In this document: positions 2,480-18,847 of the stretch, in pieces
How positions within the stretch are numbered: the first letter of the stretch is position 1
Layout: every line of letters begins with the position of its first letter
Source of the DNA: a virus
Taxonomy: Duplodnaviria > Heunggongvirae > Uroviricota > Caudoviricetes
Length of the DNA: 19,108 bases
Direction: 5' to 3' (one strand)
IMG/VR virus record: IMGVR_UViG_2534681697_000017
Coordinates: 1-19,108 of that record
Notes under the pieces: generated by a model
The model's database searches: none
Told to the model about the DNA's origin: nothing
Seen by the model: only the letters and a program-made list of their open reading frames with translations
Made by a program: the position numbers and the translations under genes

Positions 2480-2782
2480 ATGAGCAGAAAAACCCAACGT
2501 TACTCTAAAGAGTTCAAAGCCGAAGCTGTCAGAACGGTTCTTGAAAATCAACTTTCGATCAGTGAAGGCGCTTCCCGATTATCCCTTCCTGAAGGCACTT
2601 TAGGACAATGGGTTACCGCCGCCAGAAAAGGGCTCGGTACTCCTGGTTCCCGCACGGTGGCTGAACTGGAATCTGAAATTCTGCAACTGCGTAAGGCGTT
2701 AAATGAAGCTCGCCTTGAGCGAGATATATTAAAAAAAGCAACAGCGTATTTTGCACAGGAGTCGCTGAAAAATACGCGTTAA
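2480..2782 (+). CDS. IS600 OrfA
   Basis: 100-aa ORF with GGAG upstream; sequence recognised as IS600 OrfA (MSRKTQRYSKEFKAEAVR...). Confidence 0.9.
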   Translation: MSRKTQRYSKEFKAEAVRTVLENQLSISEGASRLSLPEGTLGQWVTAARKGLGTPGSRTVAELESEILQLRKALNEARLERDILKKATAYFAQESLKNTR

Positions 2783-2817
2783 TCGAACAATGGCGACAAC
2801 AATTTCCCATTGAAGCG

Positions 2818-3636
2818 ATGTGTCAGGTATTTGGTGTATCCAGGAGCGGTTATTACAACTGGGTACAGCATGAACCCTCAGACAGAAAACAAAGTGATGA
2901 GCGGCTAAAACTGGAGATTAAGGTGGCACATATCCGCACTCGCGAAACATATGGAACCCGGCGGCTCCAGACGGAGCTGGCAGAGAATGGCATCATCGTT
3001 GGTCGTGACCGACTGGCACGTCTTCGTAAGGAGCTAAGGCTACGCTGTAAGCAGAAACGCAAGTTCAGAGCGACTACGAACCCGAACCACAATCTGCCAG
3101 TTGCGCCAAATCTGCTGAACCAGACGTTCGCTCCTACAGCACCAAATCAGGTCTGGGTGGCGGACCTGACGTATGTTGCCACACAGGAGGGATGGTTGTA
3201 CCTCGCTGGCATCAAAGATGTTTATACGTGCGAAATTGTCGGCTACGCCATGGGAGAGCGCATGACAAAAGAGCTGACAGGTAAAGCCCTGTTTATGGCG
3301 CTCAGGAGCCAGCGCCCACCTGCCGGGCTAATCCACCACTCTGATCGAGGTTCACAGTACTGCGCATACGATTACCGGGTCATACAGGAGCAGTTTGGTC
3401 TGAAAACATCAATGTCGCGTAAAGGTAACTGTTACGACAACGCTCCGATGGAAAGCTTCTGGGGAACGCTGAAAAATGAGAGCCTGAGCCACTATCGTTT
3501 TAATAACCGGGATGAAGCCATCTCAGTAATACGGGAATACATTGAGATTTTCTACAATCGTCAGCGTCGTCACTCTCGTCTGGGGAATATCTCCCCGGCA
3601 GCCTTCAGGGAAAAATATCATCAGATGGCTGCTTAA
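2818..3636 (+). CDS. IS600 OrfB (DDE integrase-type transposase); normally made as an OrfAB fusion by -1 frameshifting
   Basis: 272-aa ORF with an rve-type DDE core (HSDRGSQY...CYDNAPMESFWGTLK). Coordinates are from the first in-frame ATG; the frame is open upstream into the orfA overlap. Confidence 0.9.
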   Translation: MCQVFGVSRSGYYNWVQHEPSDRKQSDERLKLEIKVAHIRTRETYGTRRLQTELAENGIIVGRDRLARLRKELRLRCKQKRKFRATTNPNHNLPVAPNLLNQTFAPTAPNQVWVADLTYVATQEGWLYLAGIKDVYTCEIVGYAMGERMTKELTGKALFMALRSQRPPAGLIHHSDRGSQYCAYDYRVIQEQFGLKTSMSRKGNCYDNAPMESFWGTLKNESLSHYRFNNRDEAISVIREYIEIFYNRQRRHSRLGNISPAAFREKYHQMAA

Positions 3637-4083: not shown

Positions 4084-4551
4084 TTATTTCAGGCACTGAG
4101 TCCTGATGTACTCCTGAAGCATTCTCAATGCTGTCTGGTCGCTGATGATTCCGTCCCGGATACCGAGAACGTTTCGTCCAGCAACTGGAGAGAGTTCGAC
4201 GGTGGCATCATTGCCCATGCCGGAGGCGCTGGAGGTTTCGGCTGAGGATGGCACAGGGCATTTTCCTTTGACGAGCACCCGACCACCATTATCAAGCTTG
4301 CGCCGAAGAGCATCATTTTCAGCTTTCGCATCAGCTAACTCCTTCGTGTATTTAGCATCGAGTGCATCAGCAGCACGCTGGCGCTGCTGCATGTCAGTAA
4401 TGGTTGCGTTCGCCAGCTTCAGTTCTCTTGCGTTTTTGTCGCGCTGCTCTTTGTAGGTAATGGCGTTATCACGGTAATGATTAACAGCCCATGACAGGCG
4501 GACGATGATGCAGATAACCAGAGCGGAGATAATCGCGGTGACTCTGCTCAT
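4084..4551 (-). CDS. Rz: Rz, inner-membrane spanin (i-spanin)
   Basis: N-terminal transmembrane segment then a charged coiled-coil region; sits immediately after the endolysin with the start overlapping its stop; contains an embedded lipoprotein ORF in the +1 frame. Start taken as ATG 4551 (the listed ORF begins at GTG 4563). Confidence 0.8.
4125..4331 (-). CDS. Rz1: Rz1, outer-membrane lipoprotein spanin (o-spanin), embedded in Rz
   Basis: [19 protein letters not shown] lipoprotein signal followed by a proline-rich segment ([11 protein letters not shown]), entirely inside Rz in another frame: the classic Rz/Rz1 arrangement. Confidence 0.7.
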
Positions 4552-5021
4552 TGCTGCCCCCACAAACAGACTTCACGCTCAATCTCACGACGGGTCATCA
4601 GCCCTTTCCATTGCTTACCGCCAGCATATGTCCAGCGACGTAGCTGGTCACATGCGCCTTTGATATCGCCCTGGTTTATTTTGCGAAGAAGCGTCGATGT
4701 TCTGAAATTGCCAGCGCCCACGTTGTAAACGAACGAGTAAAGAGCGCCGCGCGTTGTTTCCGGTATATCGACTTTGATGTACGGGTTAATTTGTCTGGCG
4801 ACAGTGGCAAGGTCTTTATTCAGGAGAGCTTTGCATTCTGCTTCGGTATACGTTTTACCAGGCATGATGTCTTTTCCGGTGTGTCCGTGACATACAGTCC
4901 ATACACCAATGATATCTTTGTATGGTATGTAGCTGACACCTTCCAGACCATCGTTACCACCTGGGCCAGTGATTAACACAGATGCTATAGCAAACAGCCC
5001 CGCCACCAATAGCAACTGCAA
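4548..5021 (-). CDS. R: Phage lysozyme (P21 R-like SAR endolysin); N-terminus disrupted by a frameshift, listed ORF starts at a TTG
   Basis: [15 protein letters not shown]...[15 protein letters not shown] matches P21-type endolysin as recalled. The expected ATG (5046-5044, overlapping the S stop as TAATG) opens a different frame that stops after 30 codons ([30 protein letters not shown]). See findings. Confidence 0.7.
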
Positions 5022-5045
5022 CAGCCTTGCGTAATGATGGCGACA

Positions 5046-5261
5046 TTATTCACCTCTCGCAGCCTTACGCTTATCTTCTCTTATTTTGAAATACAGATTC
5101 GTCAGATAAGTCAGAAGCCCCAGAAGCAGACTTCCCAGCACACCAATCGCAGCCCACTGTGATGGACTGACCTGATCCAACCACTGCAAAAACCAGTAGC
5201 CGGCACTGCCGGCGGAGGTGCCGTAGGCAATGCCCGTTGAAATTTTATCCATGGATTTCAT
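5046..5261 (-). CDS. S: Class II holin, P21 S-like pinholin with dual-start motif
   Basis: [71 protein letters not shown] is near-identical to S21 as I recall it; Met1-Lys-Ser-Met4 dual start; strong GGAGGTGAGG ribosome-binding site upstream. Confidence 0.85.
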
Positions 5262-5550
5262 AGCCTCACCTCCGCAAATAACGGATGGCGTAGTTCTTAT
5301 ATTGGGAAGGGAAAAAGAAGGCCGCAGCGTAACTGTCACTGATGAATTCAGGATAGCCAGTGGCTACGGCTCAGTTTTGGTTGTGCTGTTGCTGGGCGGC
5401 GATGACGCCTGTACGCATTTGGTGATCCGGTTCTGCTTCCGGCATTCGCTTAATTCAGCACAACGGAAAGAGCATTTATGACTCGCATCGCGGGAAAAAG
5501 CCCACGGTAGAGAGTCGAACTCTACAAATGCTCTTACCTGTTGTGAAAAC

Positions 5551-5580
5551 AAAAAAGCCCCGACGTTTCTGCCGAGGCTC
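5551..5580 (-). terminator. Intrinsic terminator upstream of the lysis cassette (tR'-like position)
   Basis: Minus-strand AGCCUCGGC-AGAAAC-GUCGGGGCU forms a 9-bp stem (two G-U pairs) followed by UUUUUU. Confidence 0.5.
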
Positions 5581-5812
5581 TTACCTAATCTAGCCAGTAT
5601 GTCGACCCTAAATATTATCGACGACCGGGGAAATCAGGATTTCAATTTCACTGCTCAGTTCGCTTTTGCTCCGAGCATATGCAAAAAATACCACTTTCAT
5701 TTCTCGGAAGCAACGCATTTACAAAATTATTTCAGTTCAGGCCGCTATTAATGGAAATTCTTTATCCAATTCTCGTTTCATTGCATAAAACATTTCTGAC
5801 TCCAGCACTTTC

Positions 5813-6263
5813 TCACACCACTCGCTTACGACAATACTGAATATCAGCACCTGTTATATAAGAAATAATCCTGGCTATATCTTGCGTGCAATTGCGATTG
5901 CAATATCGCTTAATAGCTACATCGCGGACAGGGCTTTCACGGTGAAACGTCTTAACCATGTCCGGCATCCCACTGAGCAGACGTGAGCGTTCCGCACGAG
6001 ATACATGGTAAATAGCGATCACGCTCCCTGATATAAGCATTTACTGCCTGCTGTGCCTGCTTCAGCCAGTAACTGCGGGGTTTTAAATCGCGGCGTCTTG
6101 CTTTCAGCTTGTCTGCCTGTTCTTTTGCTGAGGCTATAGCCTTTTCTTTTCTGACCAGTTCCAGTGCACACTGACCACAACAAACTTTCTGATATGAGCG
6201 GAACGGCACAAACTGATTGCCACACACTTTGCAGTTTTTGGGTTTACGCTGTTTCATTATCAC
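5813..6263 (-). pseudogene. ninG: ninG (rap)-like recombination protein gene, disrupted
   Basis: The first 103 codons (5952-6263) match lambda NinG as recalled ([43 protein letters not shown]) and then hit a stop; the downstream sequence continues only in another frame. Confidence 0.6.
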
Positions 6264-6264
6264 C

Positions 6265-6714
6265 TCAGAAAAACGACAGCAGGCGGTTATTCAGTTCAGG
6301 ATTGTTTGTACGCCCAAACACGTGTTTCAGCGCGGCATTAATCATTGCGTTGTAGCAACGTTCAAACTCATCCTGATCCATATTCGCGTAACTCAGGCTT
6401 TTTGCCCGATATCTCACCTCACCTCTTATGGTTGTGACCACATCATAGAACCCGGCAAGAATTGTCAGATTTTTACGAAACTCATCAAACTGCGTCGCTT
6501 CATCAGAGAATTCGTATCCGGCGTGTTCAGCACACCAGTACTGAAAGCAAAAATTAAGAAAAGCGAACATCTTCCGGTGAAAAGATGGATTACGGGTAAG
6601 ATTTGCTTCCAGCGTGTACAGCTCACCGTTTTTAAATTTTGCCAGTCGGGGTAAATCGCGTTCATACGCCGGTATAAATACGCCATTAGCAGCCTTGATC
6701 ATCTCCAGCTCCAT
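6265..6714 (-). CDS. Conserved phage protein of unknown function (149 aa)
   Basis: Intact ORF whose ATG overlaps the upstream stop (ATGA at 6711-6714); lies between the primase gene and ninG. Family assignment not secure; it does not resemble Q. Confidence 0.6.
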
Positions 6715-10329: not shown

Positions 10330-10434
10330 AGAGATCCTCCCATTTCAATTTTCCGATATTAGCTTACCTGATTTAAATGTCAATAGGCTAGCTATTTGAT
10401 AAATATTTGTGTTGCTAATAAAATTGGAGGCACT
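10330..10434. promoter_or_regulatory. cI/cro divergent intergenic control region (oR-like, pR/pRM-like)
   Basis: 105-bp AT-rich spacer between divergent repressor genes; contains an imperfect dyad TAGCTTACC...GGCTAGCTA. Operators are not individually resolved. Confidence 0.5.
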
Positions 10435-11154
10435 ATGACGAAGAAAATTACAATTACTGACAAAGACATCCAGAACGCTGAACGACTGCGCAAAATCTGG
10501 GATGAAAAACGGAAACAGCTATCCCTAAGCCAGGAAAAAGCCGCAGATATCCTCGGCTTCAAAACGCAGGGGGCTGTTAGTCAGTTATTGAACGCAAAAA
10601 TTGCGTTAAATACTGAAAATACCCTTAAGTTTGCGGCTTTATTACAGGTTCCTGCGGAAGAAATTAATCCAGATCTGAGTGATTTGTTACGCAGTATTCG
10701 TACCCACACACCGGGAAACAGGCGTAACCTGTTCGAGAAATATTACGAATATCCGTTACTCTCCTGCGTACAGGCTGGAGCTTTCTCAATGGATGATTTT
10801 TCGTACACCGCAAAGGATGCGATTAAGTGGATCTCCACCACCACAAAAGCCAGTGACAGGTCGTTCTGGCTGGAGGTCAAGGGGCATTCAATGACCGCGC
10901 CGCAGGGTGGTAAACCCAGTTTCCCCGAAGGGATGCTGATACTCGTTGACCCTGAGCGGGAGATTGAGGATGGCGATTTTTGCGTGGCCCGAATGAATGG
11001 CGATGAATTCACCTTCAAACGATTCATTCGTGAGAGCGGTAAAGCGTACCTGGAGCCACTCAACCCACGATTCGACATGATTGAGTGTAACGAAAACTGC
11101 CAGTTTGTCGGAAAGGTCATAAAGTCGCAGTGGAATGATGAGACTTTTGATTGA
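10435..11154 (+). CDS. cI: Lambda-family CI repressor (HTH plus S24 LexA-like autopeptidase domain)
   Basis: C-terminal half ([32 protein letters not shown]...[11 protein letters not shown]...[14 protein letters not shown]) closely resembles the lambda CI C-terminal domain as recalled, including an Ala-Gly site (VQAGAF). N-terminal HTH is divergent. Start at ATG 10435 with GGAGG upstream. Confidence 0.9.
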
Positions 11155-11560: not shown

Positions 11561-11905
11561 TTAAGCCCCTGTGTGATGGTTGACTTCTTTTTCCAGCGCC
11601 TTATTAACAAAGGCGTTCAGTGATAAATCTTCTTCCATCGCCATTTCAGCGACCCGACGATGCAGTTCTGGATCAAGTCTGACGTTAAACACACCTTTAA
11701 ACGGGGTATCAGGCTCCTTTCCATCCTCCACACAAGACTGTAAATACAGCTCAACCGATGTCTTAAACTCCTGTTCCAGTTCAGCTAATGTAGAAGCCTC
11801 ATAAGTTACCAGGTCTCGAATAAACGCCAGTTTTCCGTACAGGATATTATTTTCAAAATCTGGTTCTACTGTACCTAAATATCCTTTATATTTTAGATGA
11901 TTCAT
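11561..11905 (-). CDS. hicB: HicB-family antitoxin (HicB fold plus C-terminal ribbon-helix-helix)
   Basis: ATG overlaps the hicA stop (ATGA at 11902-11905); C-terminal ELHRRVAEMAMEEDLSLNAFVNKALEKEV is RHH-like. Confidence 0.7.
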   Translation of the reverse strand: MNHLKYKGYLGTVEPDFENNILYGKLAFIRDLVTYEASTLAELEQEFKTSVELYLQSCVEDGKEPDTPFKGVFNVRLDPELHRRVAEMAMEEDLSLNAFVNKALEKEVNHHTGA

Positions 11906-12156
11906 AATACCCCAGCCTCTTTCAGATTCTGTTTAATCGCTTTCAGCGTTCCACCTTTAATATAACTTTCTGGATGTGGGCGATGCATTAATATGGTGTG
12001 GTTGATTTCAGCATTGAAAAACCGCACTCTTGAGCCCTGCATTTCCTTTTTGACATATCCCAGAGAGGAAAACAAAACGACCAACTCATCCCATTCAAAC
12101 GTTTTTTTACTGTTTAAAAACTTTTCCAGTAGCTTATCTGCTTTCCCCATACCCAC
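11902..12156 (-). CDS. hicA: HicA-family toxin (mRNA interferase)
   Basis: GSRVRF...HRPHP...IKGGTLKAIKQNLKEAG matches the HicA consensus. The listed start is GTG 12156; an alternative ATG lies at 12150. Confidence 0.7.
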   Translation of the reverse strand: MGMGKADKLLEKFLNSKKTFEWDELVVLFSSLGYVKKEMQGSRVRFFNAEINHTILMHRPHPESYIKGGTLKAIKQNLKEAGVL

Positions 12157-12305
12157 ATAATCTCATCTTCGCTACATTGCAACTAATTATAGTTACAGGC
12201 GATGTTTTTGTCAAAAGCCACCAAGCCCGCTGGGTTCTCTTTGACTGTTCACTGCTTTTCTTAGTGTTATCAGGGGGTTCCCTCACACCAAATCTAACAC
12301 AGAGT

Positions 12306-12332: not shown

Positions 12333-12443
12333 GCGCATCCTCCATAACTCACCACCTGCATTATCCTCGCTTATATTTTTTACATAAATAAATTAATCTA
12401 AAAATCAATCACATAGATTAAAATTAAATTATCAGTCTTACTA

Positions 12444-12473
12444 TTAACTGCGATCAGTTGCGCTTATTATATT
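12444..12473 (+). promoter_or_regulatory. Candidate early-left (pL-like) promoter
   Basis: TTAACT, an 18-nt spacer, then TATATT, within a very AT-rich block; read by eye only. Confidence 0.3.
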
Positions 12474-12495
12474 TTACCCAAGCCAGAAACATCGC

Positions 12496-12565
12496 GCCCT
12501 GACACAGGGCTACATAAATCAGTCGTACGGCGCGACTTAACCCGCCGCAAAATGCTCTTTAACAA
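12496..12565 (+). promoter_or_regulatory. Antitermination-like element: boxB-like hairpin (12496-12510) plus rrn-type boxA (12553-12565)
   Basis: GCCCTGACACAGGGC has the same stem as lambda nut boxB (GCCCU...AGGGC) with a different loop; TGCTCTTTAACAA equals the E. coli rrn boxA consensus as recalled. Confidence 0.4.
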
Positions 12566-12854
12566 TCTGGAGCTTTACAGCGTCAATGACCTGTTTAGAC
12601 CCCTACACGTAAACGTGCTGTATCATCGGGTGCGATCCGGTCGATGAGAGAGTATCCCCGCGCGAGAGCGAGAACGGCGTGAGAACGGGCAACACTGGCA
12701 GGAAGTTGGCGCTGACCAATACAGGGAATGTTTTGGGGTGCAGGCGGCACCGCCAAAGCATTTCCGAGAAAGGACGATATTGACTGCGTGTGATGTCGGG
12801 GCTATATTTGGCGAACACCTCATAAAACGGGTGCCGGGATTAGCACCCCGAAAG

Positions 12855-12893
12855 TTACTCGAGCGCATAACCGCGCTGAAGCGGTTTTTTTAT
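12855..12893 (+). terminator. Putative intrinsic terminator in the leader just upstream of the Rha-like gene
   Basis: CGCATAA-CCGCGCTGAAGCGG-TTTTTTTATGCG: inner hairpin (ACCGC/GCGGT) plus T7 run, enclosed by an outer CGCATAA/TTATGCG stem. Confidence 0.4.
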
Positions 12894-13057
12894 GCGTAAT
12901 GCACAGCCACATTCAAATTATGGTGAGGCGTGCGGGGCAGCCGCAAGGCTGGCCGGGTTCTCGAGTGACCGGTAGTGCTAACCCTGTGCGTCTCACCACC
13001 CATGAGATTAGCACCTCTGGTGGTGAGTTAATTAACTTATCACTTGAGGATGTCATT

Positions 13058-13435
13058 ATGGCTACTACCCTTTCTCACCCTGACGTAACCATCGAAAATG
13101 GTCGCGCCGTCACTACTTCTATTTCGATTGCTGAGTTTTTTGGCAAGCAGCATCACCATGTTGTTCAGAAAATAGAATCCCTCGAATGCTCTGAGCAATT
13201 CTTAACCCGCAACTTTTCGCGGGTTAAATTCGAACACCGAGGCAATACCTATAACGCCTACCAAATCACCAAAAACGGCTTCGTTTTTCTGGTGATGGGC
13301 TTCACCGGCAAAAAAGCAGCTGCATTCAAGGAAGCCTACATTGCTGAATTCGATCGCATGGAAAAACAACTATGGGAACAGAAACAACTGGCCCTGTCTT
13401 CTCCTGCGATGAATATCAATTTCCCTTTATCGTAG
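13058..13435 (+). CDS. Rha-family phage regulatory protein (125 aa)
   Basis: VTTSISIAEFFGKQHHHVVQKIESL resembles the Phage_pRha motif. Start at ATG 13058 with GAGGA 7 nt upstream; the longer ORF from 12899 is rejected. Confidence 0.6.
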   Translation: MATTLSHPDVTIENGRAVTTSISIAEFFGKQHHHVVQKIESLECSEQFLTRNFSRVKFEHRGNTYNAYQITKNGFVFLVMGFTGKKAAAFKEAYIAEFDRMEKQLWEQKQLALSSPAMNINFPLS

Positions 13436-13462
13436 TTTTCAGAGCATCACCCCTATGCCACG

Positions 13463-13696
13463 ATGAACTATGTTGATAGAAATACATTGCAGCTTGATAC
13501 CTCCGTCTTATTCGACATGCCAAGCCCTGCAATGCGCATATTTAATGAATTACGTCGTAACGGCTATAACGTCGATGCGGCTGTCGCCGAATTTAACGCC
13601 TTCAAGCATCTGACGGAAGAAATGCGCCGTAAATTGCTGGATATTTCCCGCACATCGGAAAAGTCTTCCCGCTTTGGTTTCAACGTTAATCTTTAA
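13463..13696 (+). CDS. Hypothetical protein (77 aa)
   Basis: ORF in the early-left operon; weak ribosome-binding site. Confidence 0.45.
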   Translation: MNYVDRNTLQLDTSVLFDMPSPAMRIFNELRRNGYNVDAAVAEFNAFKHLTEEMRRKLLDISRTSEKSSRFGFNVNL

Positions 13697-14591: not shown

Positions 14592-15541
14592 ATGTTCGAT
14601 ATCGTTGAATTTGTTAAGCAGCAGGAGCGCTTTTTCTGCGAGGCATTAACTGAACCGACGCTGACATGGGCGAAGGAAAGTCAGTTTGCAATTCAGCAAT
14701 TCCAGAAAAATGCCTTTCTGGCTGACACAGCACGGGCAAATCTGCCCAGCGCACAGAACGCTATCATCAATGTTGCCGCCATCGGCATAACCCTGAACCC
14801 GGCCAGCAAGCTGGCGTATCTGGTCCCACGAAAAAAGGCTGTATGCCTGGATATCAGTTATATGGGGCTTCTGCATCTGGCACAGGTCACAGGAGCCATT
14901 CAGTGGGGGCAATGCAAACTTGTTTACGAGAAGGACATTTACGAGTCCAACGGTATTGACTGCGCCCCCACGCACAAATACAACCCATTCGTAGACAGGG
15001 GCGCACGCATTGGCGGTTATTGTGTCGTAAAAACATCCGAAGGCGACTATCTGACCGAAGAGATGAGCAACAGGGAAATCGAGGTCATCAGGGCGTGCAG
15101 CAAAGCCGGAAATAACGGAGGAAGTAGCCCGTGGGATAGTTTCCCCGATGAAATGGCCAGAAAAGCCATTGTAAGCGCGCCAGCAAATACTGGCCCCGTC
15201 GCGATCGCCTGGATACAGCTATCGACTACCTGAACACTCAGGCCGGTGAAGGTATCATCCTGAATGCTGATCACATCCCTGAGCGTGACGTCACTCCCGC
15301 ATCAGATGAGATTATCAATGAGATCACTCAGGCAATCACCGAAATTAACAAGACATGGGATGACCTGCTTCCCTTATGTTCCAAAACATTCCGTCGCACG
15401 ATTGCATCACATGAATATCTCAGTCAGGAAGAAGCTGTCAAAACGCTTGATTTTGTCAAAAAGAAAGCTGCCAGAAACAAGGCCACGGCGGAAGCGAAAA
15501 TTCACGCCACCACGGAAAATAGCAGCGAGGCCGTGTCATGA
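14592..15541 (+). pseudogene. recT: RecT-family single-strand annealing protein, interrupted by a -1 frameshift near 15172
   Basis: The N-terminal 213 codons (14592-15233) are RecT-like (AIGITLNPASKLAYLVPRKK...). The expected C-terminal continuation (KRASKYWPRRDRLDTAIDYLN...SEAVS) is read in the -1 frame from about 15173 to the TGA at 15539-15541, which overlaps the exonuclease start. Confidence 0.7.
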
Positions 15542-17174: not shown

Positions 17175-17357
17175 TAGTCTTAATACTAGTTTTTAGACTA
17201 GTCATTGGAGAACAGATGATTGATGTCTTAGGGCCGGAGAAACGCAGACGGCGTACCACACAGGAAAAGATCGCAATTGTTCAGCAGAGCTTTGAACCGG
17301 GGATGACGGTCTCCCTGAACCGCCCCGGGTTTCCTGGAGAGTGTTTTATCTGTGAAC

Positions 17358-18240
<883 letters not shown>

Positions 18241-18244
<4 letters not shown>

Positions 18245-18567
18245 TTTTTCCAGAGGCGGTCGAACTCCGCCTTCGCAAAATAAGCGGAAGCCTGGCGAAG
18301 GATATCGTTACTGCGGCGCAGTTCACGATTTTCACGCTCCAGCTCTTTCAGACGCTGACGTTCAGCGGTGGTGAGCCCTCCATCACCGCCCCCGGTATCC
18401 CGCTCATGCTGGCGAACCCAGACACGCAGAGTCTCCGGCGTACAGCCAATCTTTGGAGCAATGGAACAAATTGTCGCCCATTGTGAGTCATATTCGCCCT
18501 GACTTTCCAGAACCATACGGACTGCCCGTTGACGGACTTCGGGGGAAAAACGAGTATTTTTAGTCAT
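18241..18567 (-). CDS. IS629 OrfA
   Basis: 108-aa [42 protein letters not shown]... recognised from memory. Confidence 0.9.
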
Positions 18568-18847
18568 CCTGTTTACCTCTTTCTCAGGAAGTTTAGTCTC
18601 CAGGATTCCCGGGGCGGTTCACCCTCGTTGCCCGGCAACATGGTGTAGCAGCCAGCCAGTTATTTCTCTGGCGTAAGCAATACCAGGAAGGAAGTCTTAC
18701 TGCTGTGGCCGCCGGAGAACAGGTTGTTCCTGCCTCTGAACTTGCTGCCGCCATGAAGCAGATTAAAGAACTCCAGCGCCTGCTCGGCAAGAAAACGATG
18801 GAAAATGAACTCCTCAAAGAAGCCGTTGAATATGGACGGGCAAAAAA

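Follow-up and report, generated by a model that had tools for sequence, protein, structure and literature searches.

The 19,108-nucleotide (nt) stretch analysed here as a whole (the window; IMG/VR virus record IMGVR_UViG_2534681697_000017) is a lambdoid prophage close to the Shiga toxin 2a (Stx2a) phages Lyz12581Vzw, P13374, TL-2011c and phi191 of the genus Oslovirus (Sepvirinae). Downstream of its co-oriented cI repressor gene lies a leader with a boxA motif, which is followed in this order by isrK, C4, Rha, kil, gamL, recT, exo and ea22 (Table 1). The position matches the slot of PL, nutL and N in phage lambda, so that the term "early-left leader", used in a preliminary description of the same DNA, is correct. 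That description had reported a hairpin and a boxA behind a promoter-like element and had read them as a possible antitermination site in a phage without an N gene. Its observations were confirmed and part of its interpretation holds, namely the type of boxA and the absence of N, while the assignment of the hairpin to lambda boxB and the idea of a lost N do not. It had also passed over a structured RNA domain of 113 nt, the homology to the PL leader of phage phi80, and the isrK and C4 genes between the leader and Rha. Sequence comparison gives good support to the view that boxA is the 5' end of a conserved, non-coding leader RNA with covarying helices, a new RNA family without an entry in Rfam 15.

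Motifs and putative promoter of the early-left leader

The hairpin motif GCCCTGACACAGGGC and the boxA TGCTCTTTAACAA were found exactly where they had been placed before, 42 nt apart. Both occur once in the window: 0.01 copies of the hairpin (GCCCTGANNNAGGGC) would be expected after shuffling and 0.00 of the exact boxA 13-mer (200 shuffles). Chance does not account for either motif. The promoter-like element TTAACT-N18-TATATT was recovered as well, and from this putative PL-equivalent promoter the leader transcript would start near 12480. Among relatives the conserved leader starts directly after the -10 element and the upstream sequence varies with the immunity type. Likewise, homology between P13374 and the window leader begins at the -10, and the leader of phi80 directly follows the annotated O-L region. 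Since no operator common to the cI/cro intergenic region and the leader promoter was detected at the level of 8-mers, the case for control of this promoter by the repressor is based on the phi80 annotation and the mosaic boundary. Two candidate operators were noticed here, a palindrome (AACTGCGATCAGTT, 12446-12459) overlapping the -35 element and spacer of the leader promoter, and TAATCTA-N13-TAGATTA at 12394-12420 close to it.

The 5'-proximal hairpin had been called a lambda-like boxB. In the lambda record, nutL reads CGCTCTTA-N8-GCCCTGAAGAAGGGC followed by ...TTTGGGGTGTGTG, and nutR reads CGCTCTTA-N9-GCCCTGAAAAAGGGC. The 5-bp stem in the window is indeed that of lambda boxB, as stated previously, whereas the loop (GACAC) differs, as does the order, with the hairpin upstream of boxA; the departure from the lambda nut order had been recognised correctly. 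Of 23 IMG/VR loci in the Stx-type lineage, 19 have the loop UACAC, as does P13374, and the other four have GACAC; a loop starting with U has lost the initial G found in both lambda copies. GACAC itself ends in C, while both lambda boxB loops end in A, and this final A is required for the fold that N recognises. Moreover, most family members possess a different 5' leader (CCCAUCGAAACGAAACAUCGACAG...) without the hairpin, the window-type leader being limited to the Stx-phage group. Elsewhere in IMG/VR the exact 15-mer turns up only by chance, inside coding regions of unrelated phages and never beside an N gene. Judging by these comparisons, the hairpin is best described as a lineage-specific 5' stem-loop outside the conserved element, not as a boxB; possibly it caps and stabilises the transcript. 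On the other side of boxA, the nearest hairpin has a loop of 3 nt, and no GNRA-like pentaloop of the lambda boxB type lies within a few nt.

A family of leader RNAs beginning at boxA

Sensitive BLAST searches showed that positions 12553-12740, beginning exactly at boxA, are 93-94% identical to sequences in phi80, HK225 and Klebsiella phage KO-TP1, and that the flanks of this block are unrelated. The phi80 match (locus L004, 3001-3188, 94% identity) lies between the annotated O-L region and a gene annotated "N". In inducible Stx phages the window leader is 97% identical, and weaker BLAST matches were obtained for Edwardsiella phage Edno5 and e14-like prophages of E. coli. When IMG/VR was scanned with a motif from inside the conserved block, boxA excluded, about 117 true loci were recovered, essentially all of which carry, 74-80 nt ahead of the core motif, a sequence resembling boxA. 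It reads UGCUUUUUAACAA in 74 loci, UGCUCUUUAACAA in 23 and CGCUCUUUAACAA in six, next to a few one-base variants, and the core UUUAACA is kept in 115. As this sequence recurs at a fixed distance in loci that were chosen without it, boxA is, on comparative grounds, under strong selection. The window copy matches the functional boxA consensus GYTCTTTAANA perfectly (PMC5725501), which bears out its earlier classification as rrn consensus rather than a lambda variant, lambda boxA being CGCUCUUA. A scan of genome contigs with GCGATCCGGTN{15,30}CGAGAG was discarded as too unspecific because of GC-rich chance matches.

A second IMG/VR scan and further BLAST searches enlarged the family by Providencia phage PSTCR7lys, Klebsiella ST13-OXA48phi12.2 and the APSE phages of Hamiltonella. 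Carriers now comprise about 170 IMG/VR contigs as well as named phages from Escherichia, Shigella, Klebsiella, Edwardsiella, Providencia and Hamiltonella (APSE), including the Shiga-toxin phage of the 2011 O104:H4 strain and well over 100 lambda-like phages without an N gene. The setting is constant: an S24/LexA-type repressor gene precedes the element in the same orientation, and the element heads the early-left genes. In PSTCR7lys (locus L350, 3496-3677, 144.4 bits) it lies between the cI gene and uncharacterised early-left open reading frames (ORFs); in APSE-2 (locus L349, 114-298, 123.7 bits) it stands ahead of the early-left recombination genes, the record stopping before the repressor side. 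No protein family other than the cI-type repressor is common to the flanks, which thus hold no universal partner beyond it. The open-access literature contains no description of these sequences or of a boxA in these phages.

In the predicted fold boxA is unpaired with a hairpin on either side. Its 5' side is adjoined by a hairpin in both leader variants, CGGCG-N10-CGCCG in the window and GGCG(G)AC-AGCAA-GUCGCC at the same place in phi80-type leaders, and boxA is single-stranded in both. The hairpin on the 3' side is variable (type T1 in 101 loci, T2 in 18, T3 in five and three unclassified) and received no covariation support in either of the alignments described below; in the Edno5 type its 3' arm covaries with a distal strand instead. 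The conserved domain that follows consists of a closing helix (CCUGUU / CUGGCAGG; 12590-12595 with 12697-12702), a CCC/GGG helix and three hairpins, one of which is capped by an invariant GAGA tetraloop (12664-12667). The strands at its junctions are highly conserved and include two copies of GAGAACGG. This direct repeat, GAGAACGG...GAGAACGG in the 3' strands (12668-12688), is nearly invariant in the family and could be a contact site for a protein or the polymerase.

Two MAFFT alignments of non-redundant members (A3 with 28 and A5 with 25 sequences) yielded the same RNAalifold consensus fold. In A3, 96.5% of cells are paired, 17 of 34 pairs show compensatory changes and four of five measures exceed all of 500 shuffles. 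The more diverse A5 has 96.0% of cells paired, compensatory changes in 23 of 31 pairs (12.6 +/- 1.7 in shuffles) and 120 compensatory cells (31.5 in shuffles), with all five measures beating 500 of 500 shuffles; slid controls reached at most 12 pairs and 19 cells. The G-U pairs of the domain are compatible with the plus strand only, i.e. with the direction of PL transcription. Codon periodicity is absent, as variable columns are spread 37/38/35 over the three codon positions. A protein-coding block was also considered and rejected: an antisense ORF at 12603-12818 is present in close relatives merely through the conserved DNA and is missing in divergent members. No Rfam family matched the leader, even at E values up to 10 over 12400-13100. 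The covariance model of the new family (R1), run with filters off, has its sole significant match in the 19-kb window at the leader (Table 1) and scores 205.8 bits in phi80 (L004, 2997-3175). The window shows all features by which the family is defined, i.e. boxA, a distance of 74-80 nt to the GCGAUCC loop, all helices, the GAGA loop and a location after cI.

Sequences 3' of the element fall into at least two unrelated classes. In the window the GU-rich, boxC-like stretch UUUUGGGGUG is not adjacent to boxA and lies about 165 nt downstream of it. Such a stretch occurs in about one third of the distinct relatives (UKGGGRUK in 41 of 116, 17 of these 41 with UUUGGGGUGUGG). Many other relatives (e.g. 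L183, L185 and L210) carry within 60 nt after the domain a Shine-Dalgarno sequence, a mini-ORF of three codons (AUG AAG CAC UAA or similar) and the hairpin GCGGACAGACCGC.

The window has no ORF with an arginine-rich N-terminus and no match to an N family, and the sequences downstream of the element in 115 loci hold no consistent arginine-rich ORF, just sporadic frames that look spurious. P13374, an inducible and complete Stx2a phage from the 2011 O104:H4 outbreak, carries the element and has no annotated N. The earlier statement that an N-like gene is missing is thus borne out in the window, downstream of the element in relatives and by the annotation of P13374. The gene called "N" in phi80 is an ORF of 98 amino acids (aa) whose N-terminus is not arginine-rich; it is present in 7 of 127 loci, and the window has no homologue of it. 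The gene that comes first after the element is drawn from many unrelated families whose function is unknown. Among them phrog_5305 alone hints at an N-like partner; it is found next to the T2 hairpin in 7 of 18 loci and next to T1 in 2 of 101. Its HK225 representative gp40 (L005, 3233-3445) is a first-gene product of 70 aa with the K/R-rich N-terminal stretch LPKKRQKPRKQAIKEAQ. No second boxA or model match exists in the window, including the region downstream of the cro-like gene, whether searched by eye, by motif, with nhmmer or with the covariance model (filters off), and there is a single copy in each of the 127 loci and in the 34-kb early half of P13374.

Of 78 non-redundant loci, 66 have at least one strong canonical intrinsic terminator on the transcribed strand in the 3 kb that follow the element, the mean being 1.08 terminators on this strand and 0.28 on the opposite one. 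It usually comes after the variable first gene and ahead of kil, gam and the recombination genes. The family thereby matches the PL-nutL-N-tL1 layout of lambda, except that arbitrary cargo stands in the place of N. Over about 580 nt the window transcript is not translated and is thus a natural substrate for Rho.

Possible roles of the leader

We give about an even chance to the reading that the leader acts in the early-left operon as an RNA-based site of processive antitermination, which is assisted by host Nus factors, does not depend on N and differs from both lambda nut and HK022 put. Under this reading, a cis-acting leader RNA of about 180-250 nt would emerge from the PL-equivalent promoter, with a hairpin, the single-stranded boxA, the variable hairpin, the 113-nt domain and, in the lineage of the window, the boxC-like stretch in this order. 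The nascent RNA would remain with the transcribing RNA polymerase, and boxA would recruit host NusB/NusE and with them the Nus complex. The folded domain might stand in for N and boxB through direct contact with RNA polymerase or a Nus factor. The modified elongation complex could then withstand Rho over the long untranslated isrK/C4 region and pass the intrinsic terminators between the leader and the recombination, kil and integration genes, all without a phage N protein. To our knowledge, recruitment of NusB/NusE is the only established role of boxA. Without N, boxA protects the long untranslated transcripts of rrn operons and of clustered regularly interspaced short palindromic repeat (CRISPR) arrays from Rho (PMC7665894). 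The host-factor-driven or RNA-based antitermination suggested in the preliminary description is the best reading of the sequence.

A number of points weigh against this proposal. The N/nut and put systems have two copies. The element has a single one, with no counterpart on the cro/PR side, and any antitermination by it would be confined to the left operon. Further, an rrn-type Nus complex on its own suppresses Rho-dependent termination well and intrinsic terminators poorly, so that the additional activity ascribed to the domain is conjecture. The conserved junctions of the domain would also fit a regulatory RNA that senses a ligand or a protein. The commonest boxA variant of the family, GCUUUUUAACA, deviates from GYTCTTTAANA at position 4, and a suhB double mutant that includes a change at this position lost Nus recruitment (PMC5725501). 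The window prophage is decayed, so its own copy of the leader may be inactive. Finally, the function as antiterminator is a prediction from sequence, and the searchable literature holds no functional data on the element.

Two other readings keep an intact role for the RNA. It is possible, if rather doubtful, that boxA merely recruits Nus factors, be it for protection from Rho, for folding of the leader or for a suhB-like repression of translation, and that the domain is a separate entity such as a riboswitch-like or protein-binding sensor that sets early-left expression, an element for RNA stability or processing, or a small RNA (sRNA) precursor. For rrn, suhB and CRISPR arrays, Nus and boxA are known to act in the absence of N (PMC5725501, PMC7665894), the untranslated transcript of the window would be suited to it, and the multi-way junction with its highly conserved unpaired strands and invariant GNRA loop resembles an aptamer. 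However, no conserved expression platform follows the domain, given the unrelated classes of 3' flank, and no riboswitch or sRNA of Rfam matched even at the permissive threshold. The fixed spacing of boxA and domain and their joint inheritance as a block suggest a single device, and the downstream intrinsic terminators would be left unexplained. A conventional nut-type site is the less probable of the two and, in our view, unlikely: here the variable first genes (the 98-aa "N" of phi80, phrog_5305) would be unrecognised antiterminators and the variable hairpin the equivalent of boxB. The succession of boxA, a hairpin 11-13 nt further on, a small first gene and a terminator is the layout of the left operon of lambda, the phi80 gene does carry the annotation "N", and phrog_5305 is enriched beside T2 hairpins. 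Yet the RNA is nearly invariant, whereas the first genes are unrelated to each other and to N families, and the phi80 gene is confined to a small fraction of the loci. HK225 combines phrog_5305 with a T1 hairpin, so that the association looks like linkage. In the Stx-phage lineage, including the window, RNA genes and Rha occupy the slot without any small basic protein, and the variable hairpin lacks support from covariation.

The remaining readings concern the 5' hairpin and the integrity of the site. The hairpin could be a functional lambda-type boxB that acts with boxA in the rrn order and is perhaps served by the N protein of co-resident prophages, as its stem and the rarity of an exact match in shuffled sequence might suggest. 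This is very improbable, as it is contradicted by the distribution and conservation data: most of the family lacks the hairpin, the prevailing loop in its own lineage is UACAC and the GACAC loop ends in C, and the other IMG/VR copies are random matches in coding regions, none beside an N gene. Even less credible, to the point of being negligible, is the view of the leader as a decaying remnant in a defective prophage, be it of an N gene that has eroded or of a nut site that no longer works. The nonsense codon in Rha, the frameshift in RecT, the missing Q/stx region and the insertions in the window prophage would agree with decay. However, the leader is almost identical in inducible Stx phages and is conserved over six host genera with compensatory base-pair changes, and it has no coding periodicity. 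The notion of a lost N, or of a leader derived from eroded N coding sequence, is thereby refuted, as the RNA is conserved and present in functional phages.

Returning to the proposed Nus-assisted antitermination site, its closest counterpart is the PL leader of phi80 (GenBank X13065), which is the same element located between the O-L region and the first early-left gene. It differs in its 5' segment, which lacks the GCCCUGACACAGGGC hairpin, in its boxA (UGCUUUUUAACAA), and in what follows: the ORF annotated "N" and a terminator in phi80, isrK-C4-Rha in the window. Tanaka and Matsushiro are said to have named this leader the "nutL region" (Gene, 1985). With lambda nut the element shares the position after PL, a boxA, the GU-rich boxC-like stretch (UUUGGGGUG in common) and a terminator after the first gene. 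It differs from nut by the lack of N or any arginine-rich partner, by its single copy without a nutR equivalent, by a multi-helix domain instead of a conserved GNRA-like boxB 3' of boxA, and by its rrn-type boxA. The antitermination signal of E. coli rrn operons is of the form boxB-boxA-boxC and works with Nus factors, S4 and SuhB. The window 13-mer is identical to what we take to be the rrn boxA, and the rrn leader likewise has a hairpin directly 5' of boxA, an untranslated transcript and no phage protein, while the GU-rich sequence downstream may be a further parallel; in contrast, rrn leaders have no large conserved structured domain after boxA, and the element is followed by strong intrinsic terminators. 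The put site of HK022 is about 70 nt long, forms two stems without a boxA, does not need host factors and is present in two copies; it acts in a factor-independent manner via the zinc-binding domain of the beta' subunit of RNA polymerase. Like the element, put is a folded RNA that acts in cis close behind an early promoter of an N-less lambdoid phage, and it sets the precedent for antitermination by RNA only (PMC9378689). No homology between the two was detected in the putL/putR region of HK022 by blastn, nhmmer or the covariance model with filters off (best score 11.2 bits, E 1.6). The boxA motifs of CRISPR arrays and suhB (Wade laboratory) are also consensus boxA on non-ribosomal transcripts without N, but they stand alone, whereas the boxA of the element belongs to a phage operon and forms a physical and evolutionary unit with a structured domain.

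On this basis we suggest, somewhat more tentatively than antitermination as such, that, next to N/nut and put, lambda-like phages possess a third, hitherto unrecognised device for early antitermination: a single leader RNA that joins a consensus boxA to the 113-nt domain and employs only host Nus factors and RNA polymerase. As far as we know, a bypass of early terminators in N-less lambdoid phages has been established for HK022 with its put sites only. Recent genome papers still resort to "maybe put-like" as the default for N-less phages (PMC12315714). For many of these phages the element offers a concrete and testable candidate, defined by boxA, four covarying helices and the GAGA loop and coupled to a hypothesis involving NusB/E. 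If true, this would be the first boxA coupled to a dedicated structured RNA, joining the strategies of rrn and put, and the device would be widespread (phi80, HK225, Oslovirus Stx2a phages including that of O104:H4, APSE, and Providencia, Klebsiella and Edwardsiella phages). In prophages of medical relevance it would then affect the expression of the genes for recombination, kil and integration. The element is present in the Stx2a phages of the outbreak lineages O104:H4, O103:H25 and O111, where it would control access to the early-left operon.

The prophage around the leader

The coordinates of the leader and its neighbours are compiled in Table 1.

Table 1. Leader elements and neighbouring genes in the 19,108-nt window.
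Feature	Position	Strand	Basis or remark
cro-like gene	10329-10090	-	faces the cI gene
LexA/S24-type cI repressor gene	10396-11154	+	co-oriented with the leader and upstream of it
hicA/hicB toxin-antitoxin pair	11561-12214	-	between cI and the leader
Putative PL-equivalent promoter TTAACT-N18-TATATT	12444-12473	+	promoter scan, 9/12
5'-proximal stem-loop GCCCUGACACAGGGC (previously "boxB")	12496-12510	+	predicted fold; lineage-specific
Hairpin CGGCG-N10-CGCCG directly 5' of boxA	12528-12547	+	predicted fold
Covariance-model (R1) match, boxA to 3' flank of the domain	12549-12727	+	198.6 bits, E 4e-39
boxA UGCUCUUUAACAA	12553-12565	+	unique in the window; identical to the rrn consensus
Variable hairpin ACAG(C)GUC-AAU-GACCUGU	12577-12594	+	local fold; 3' arm overlaps the closing helix of the domain
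Conserved multi-helix RNA domain, 113 nt	12590-12702	+	RNAalifold and covariation
GU-rich boxC-like stretch UUUUGGGGUG	12731-12740	+	shares UUUGGGGUG with the boxC region of lambda nutL
Promoter of isrK, TTGACT-N17-TATATT	12780-12808	+	promoter scan, 10/12
isrK sRNA gene	12815-12891	+	Rfam RF01394, 61.6 bits (gathering score 50)
Intrinsic terminator of isrK	12869-12886 (stem) and U-run	+	terminator scan; first terminator met by PL transcripts
C4-type antisense RNA gene (immI-like module)	12916-13003	+	Rfam RF01695, 78.6 bits (gathering score 45)
Rha-family regulator gene	13058-13696	+	Pfam Phage_pRha; in-frame stop at 13433-13435

The genes directly downstream resemble the isrK-C4-Rha/AnrP module of Gifsy-1 and the immI region of P1/P7, the window having isrK and C4 at Rfam level, then Rha, as well as a separate isrK promoter. 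A dedicated promoter is documented for isrK of Gifsy-1 (PMC4825925). This module is a passenger downstream of the leader, as most family members have other genes in the slot. A Pfam match to "Phage_ASH" on the ORF at 12899-13435 was rejected, since it is merely the C4 RNA in translation. The stop codon in Rha replaces a tryptophan (NFPLS*FSEHH in the window, NFPLSWFSEHH in Lyz12581Vzw), and the gene is probably a pseudogene or encodes a truncated protein. RecT (14592-15538) is split over two overlapping frames, with tblastn pieces at 14592-15197 and 15140-15538, likely by a frameshift; the neighbouring gamL and exo are intact.

In the right arm (4084-6714), short ORFs for DUF1367 (149 aa) and NinG (103 aa) each match only the N-terminal part of their Pfam profile. 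Holin, lysozyme and Rz follow within about 600 bp, and the right arm of the window has no Q, stx or tRNA region. This arm is deleted, and the window prophage is a defective, toxin-less relative of the Stx2a phages. Moreover, it carries two insertion sequences of the IS3 family, one at 2480-3636 (plus strand) with ORFs for a transposase helix-turn-helix and an rve domain, and another at about 17350-18600 (minus strand) with an ALIL frameshifting pseudoknot (18170-18286, 115.7 bits). On the repressor side, the hicAB pair is driven by a perfect consensus promoter, TTGACA-17-TATAAT, at 12214-12186 on the minus strand. The pair occupies a moron slot that in relatives is filled by a restriction-modification system or a gene with a Panacea domain instead.

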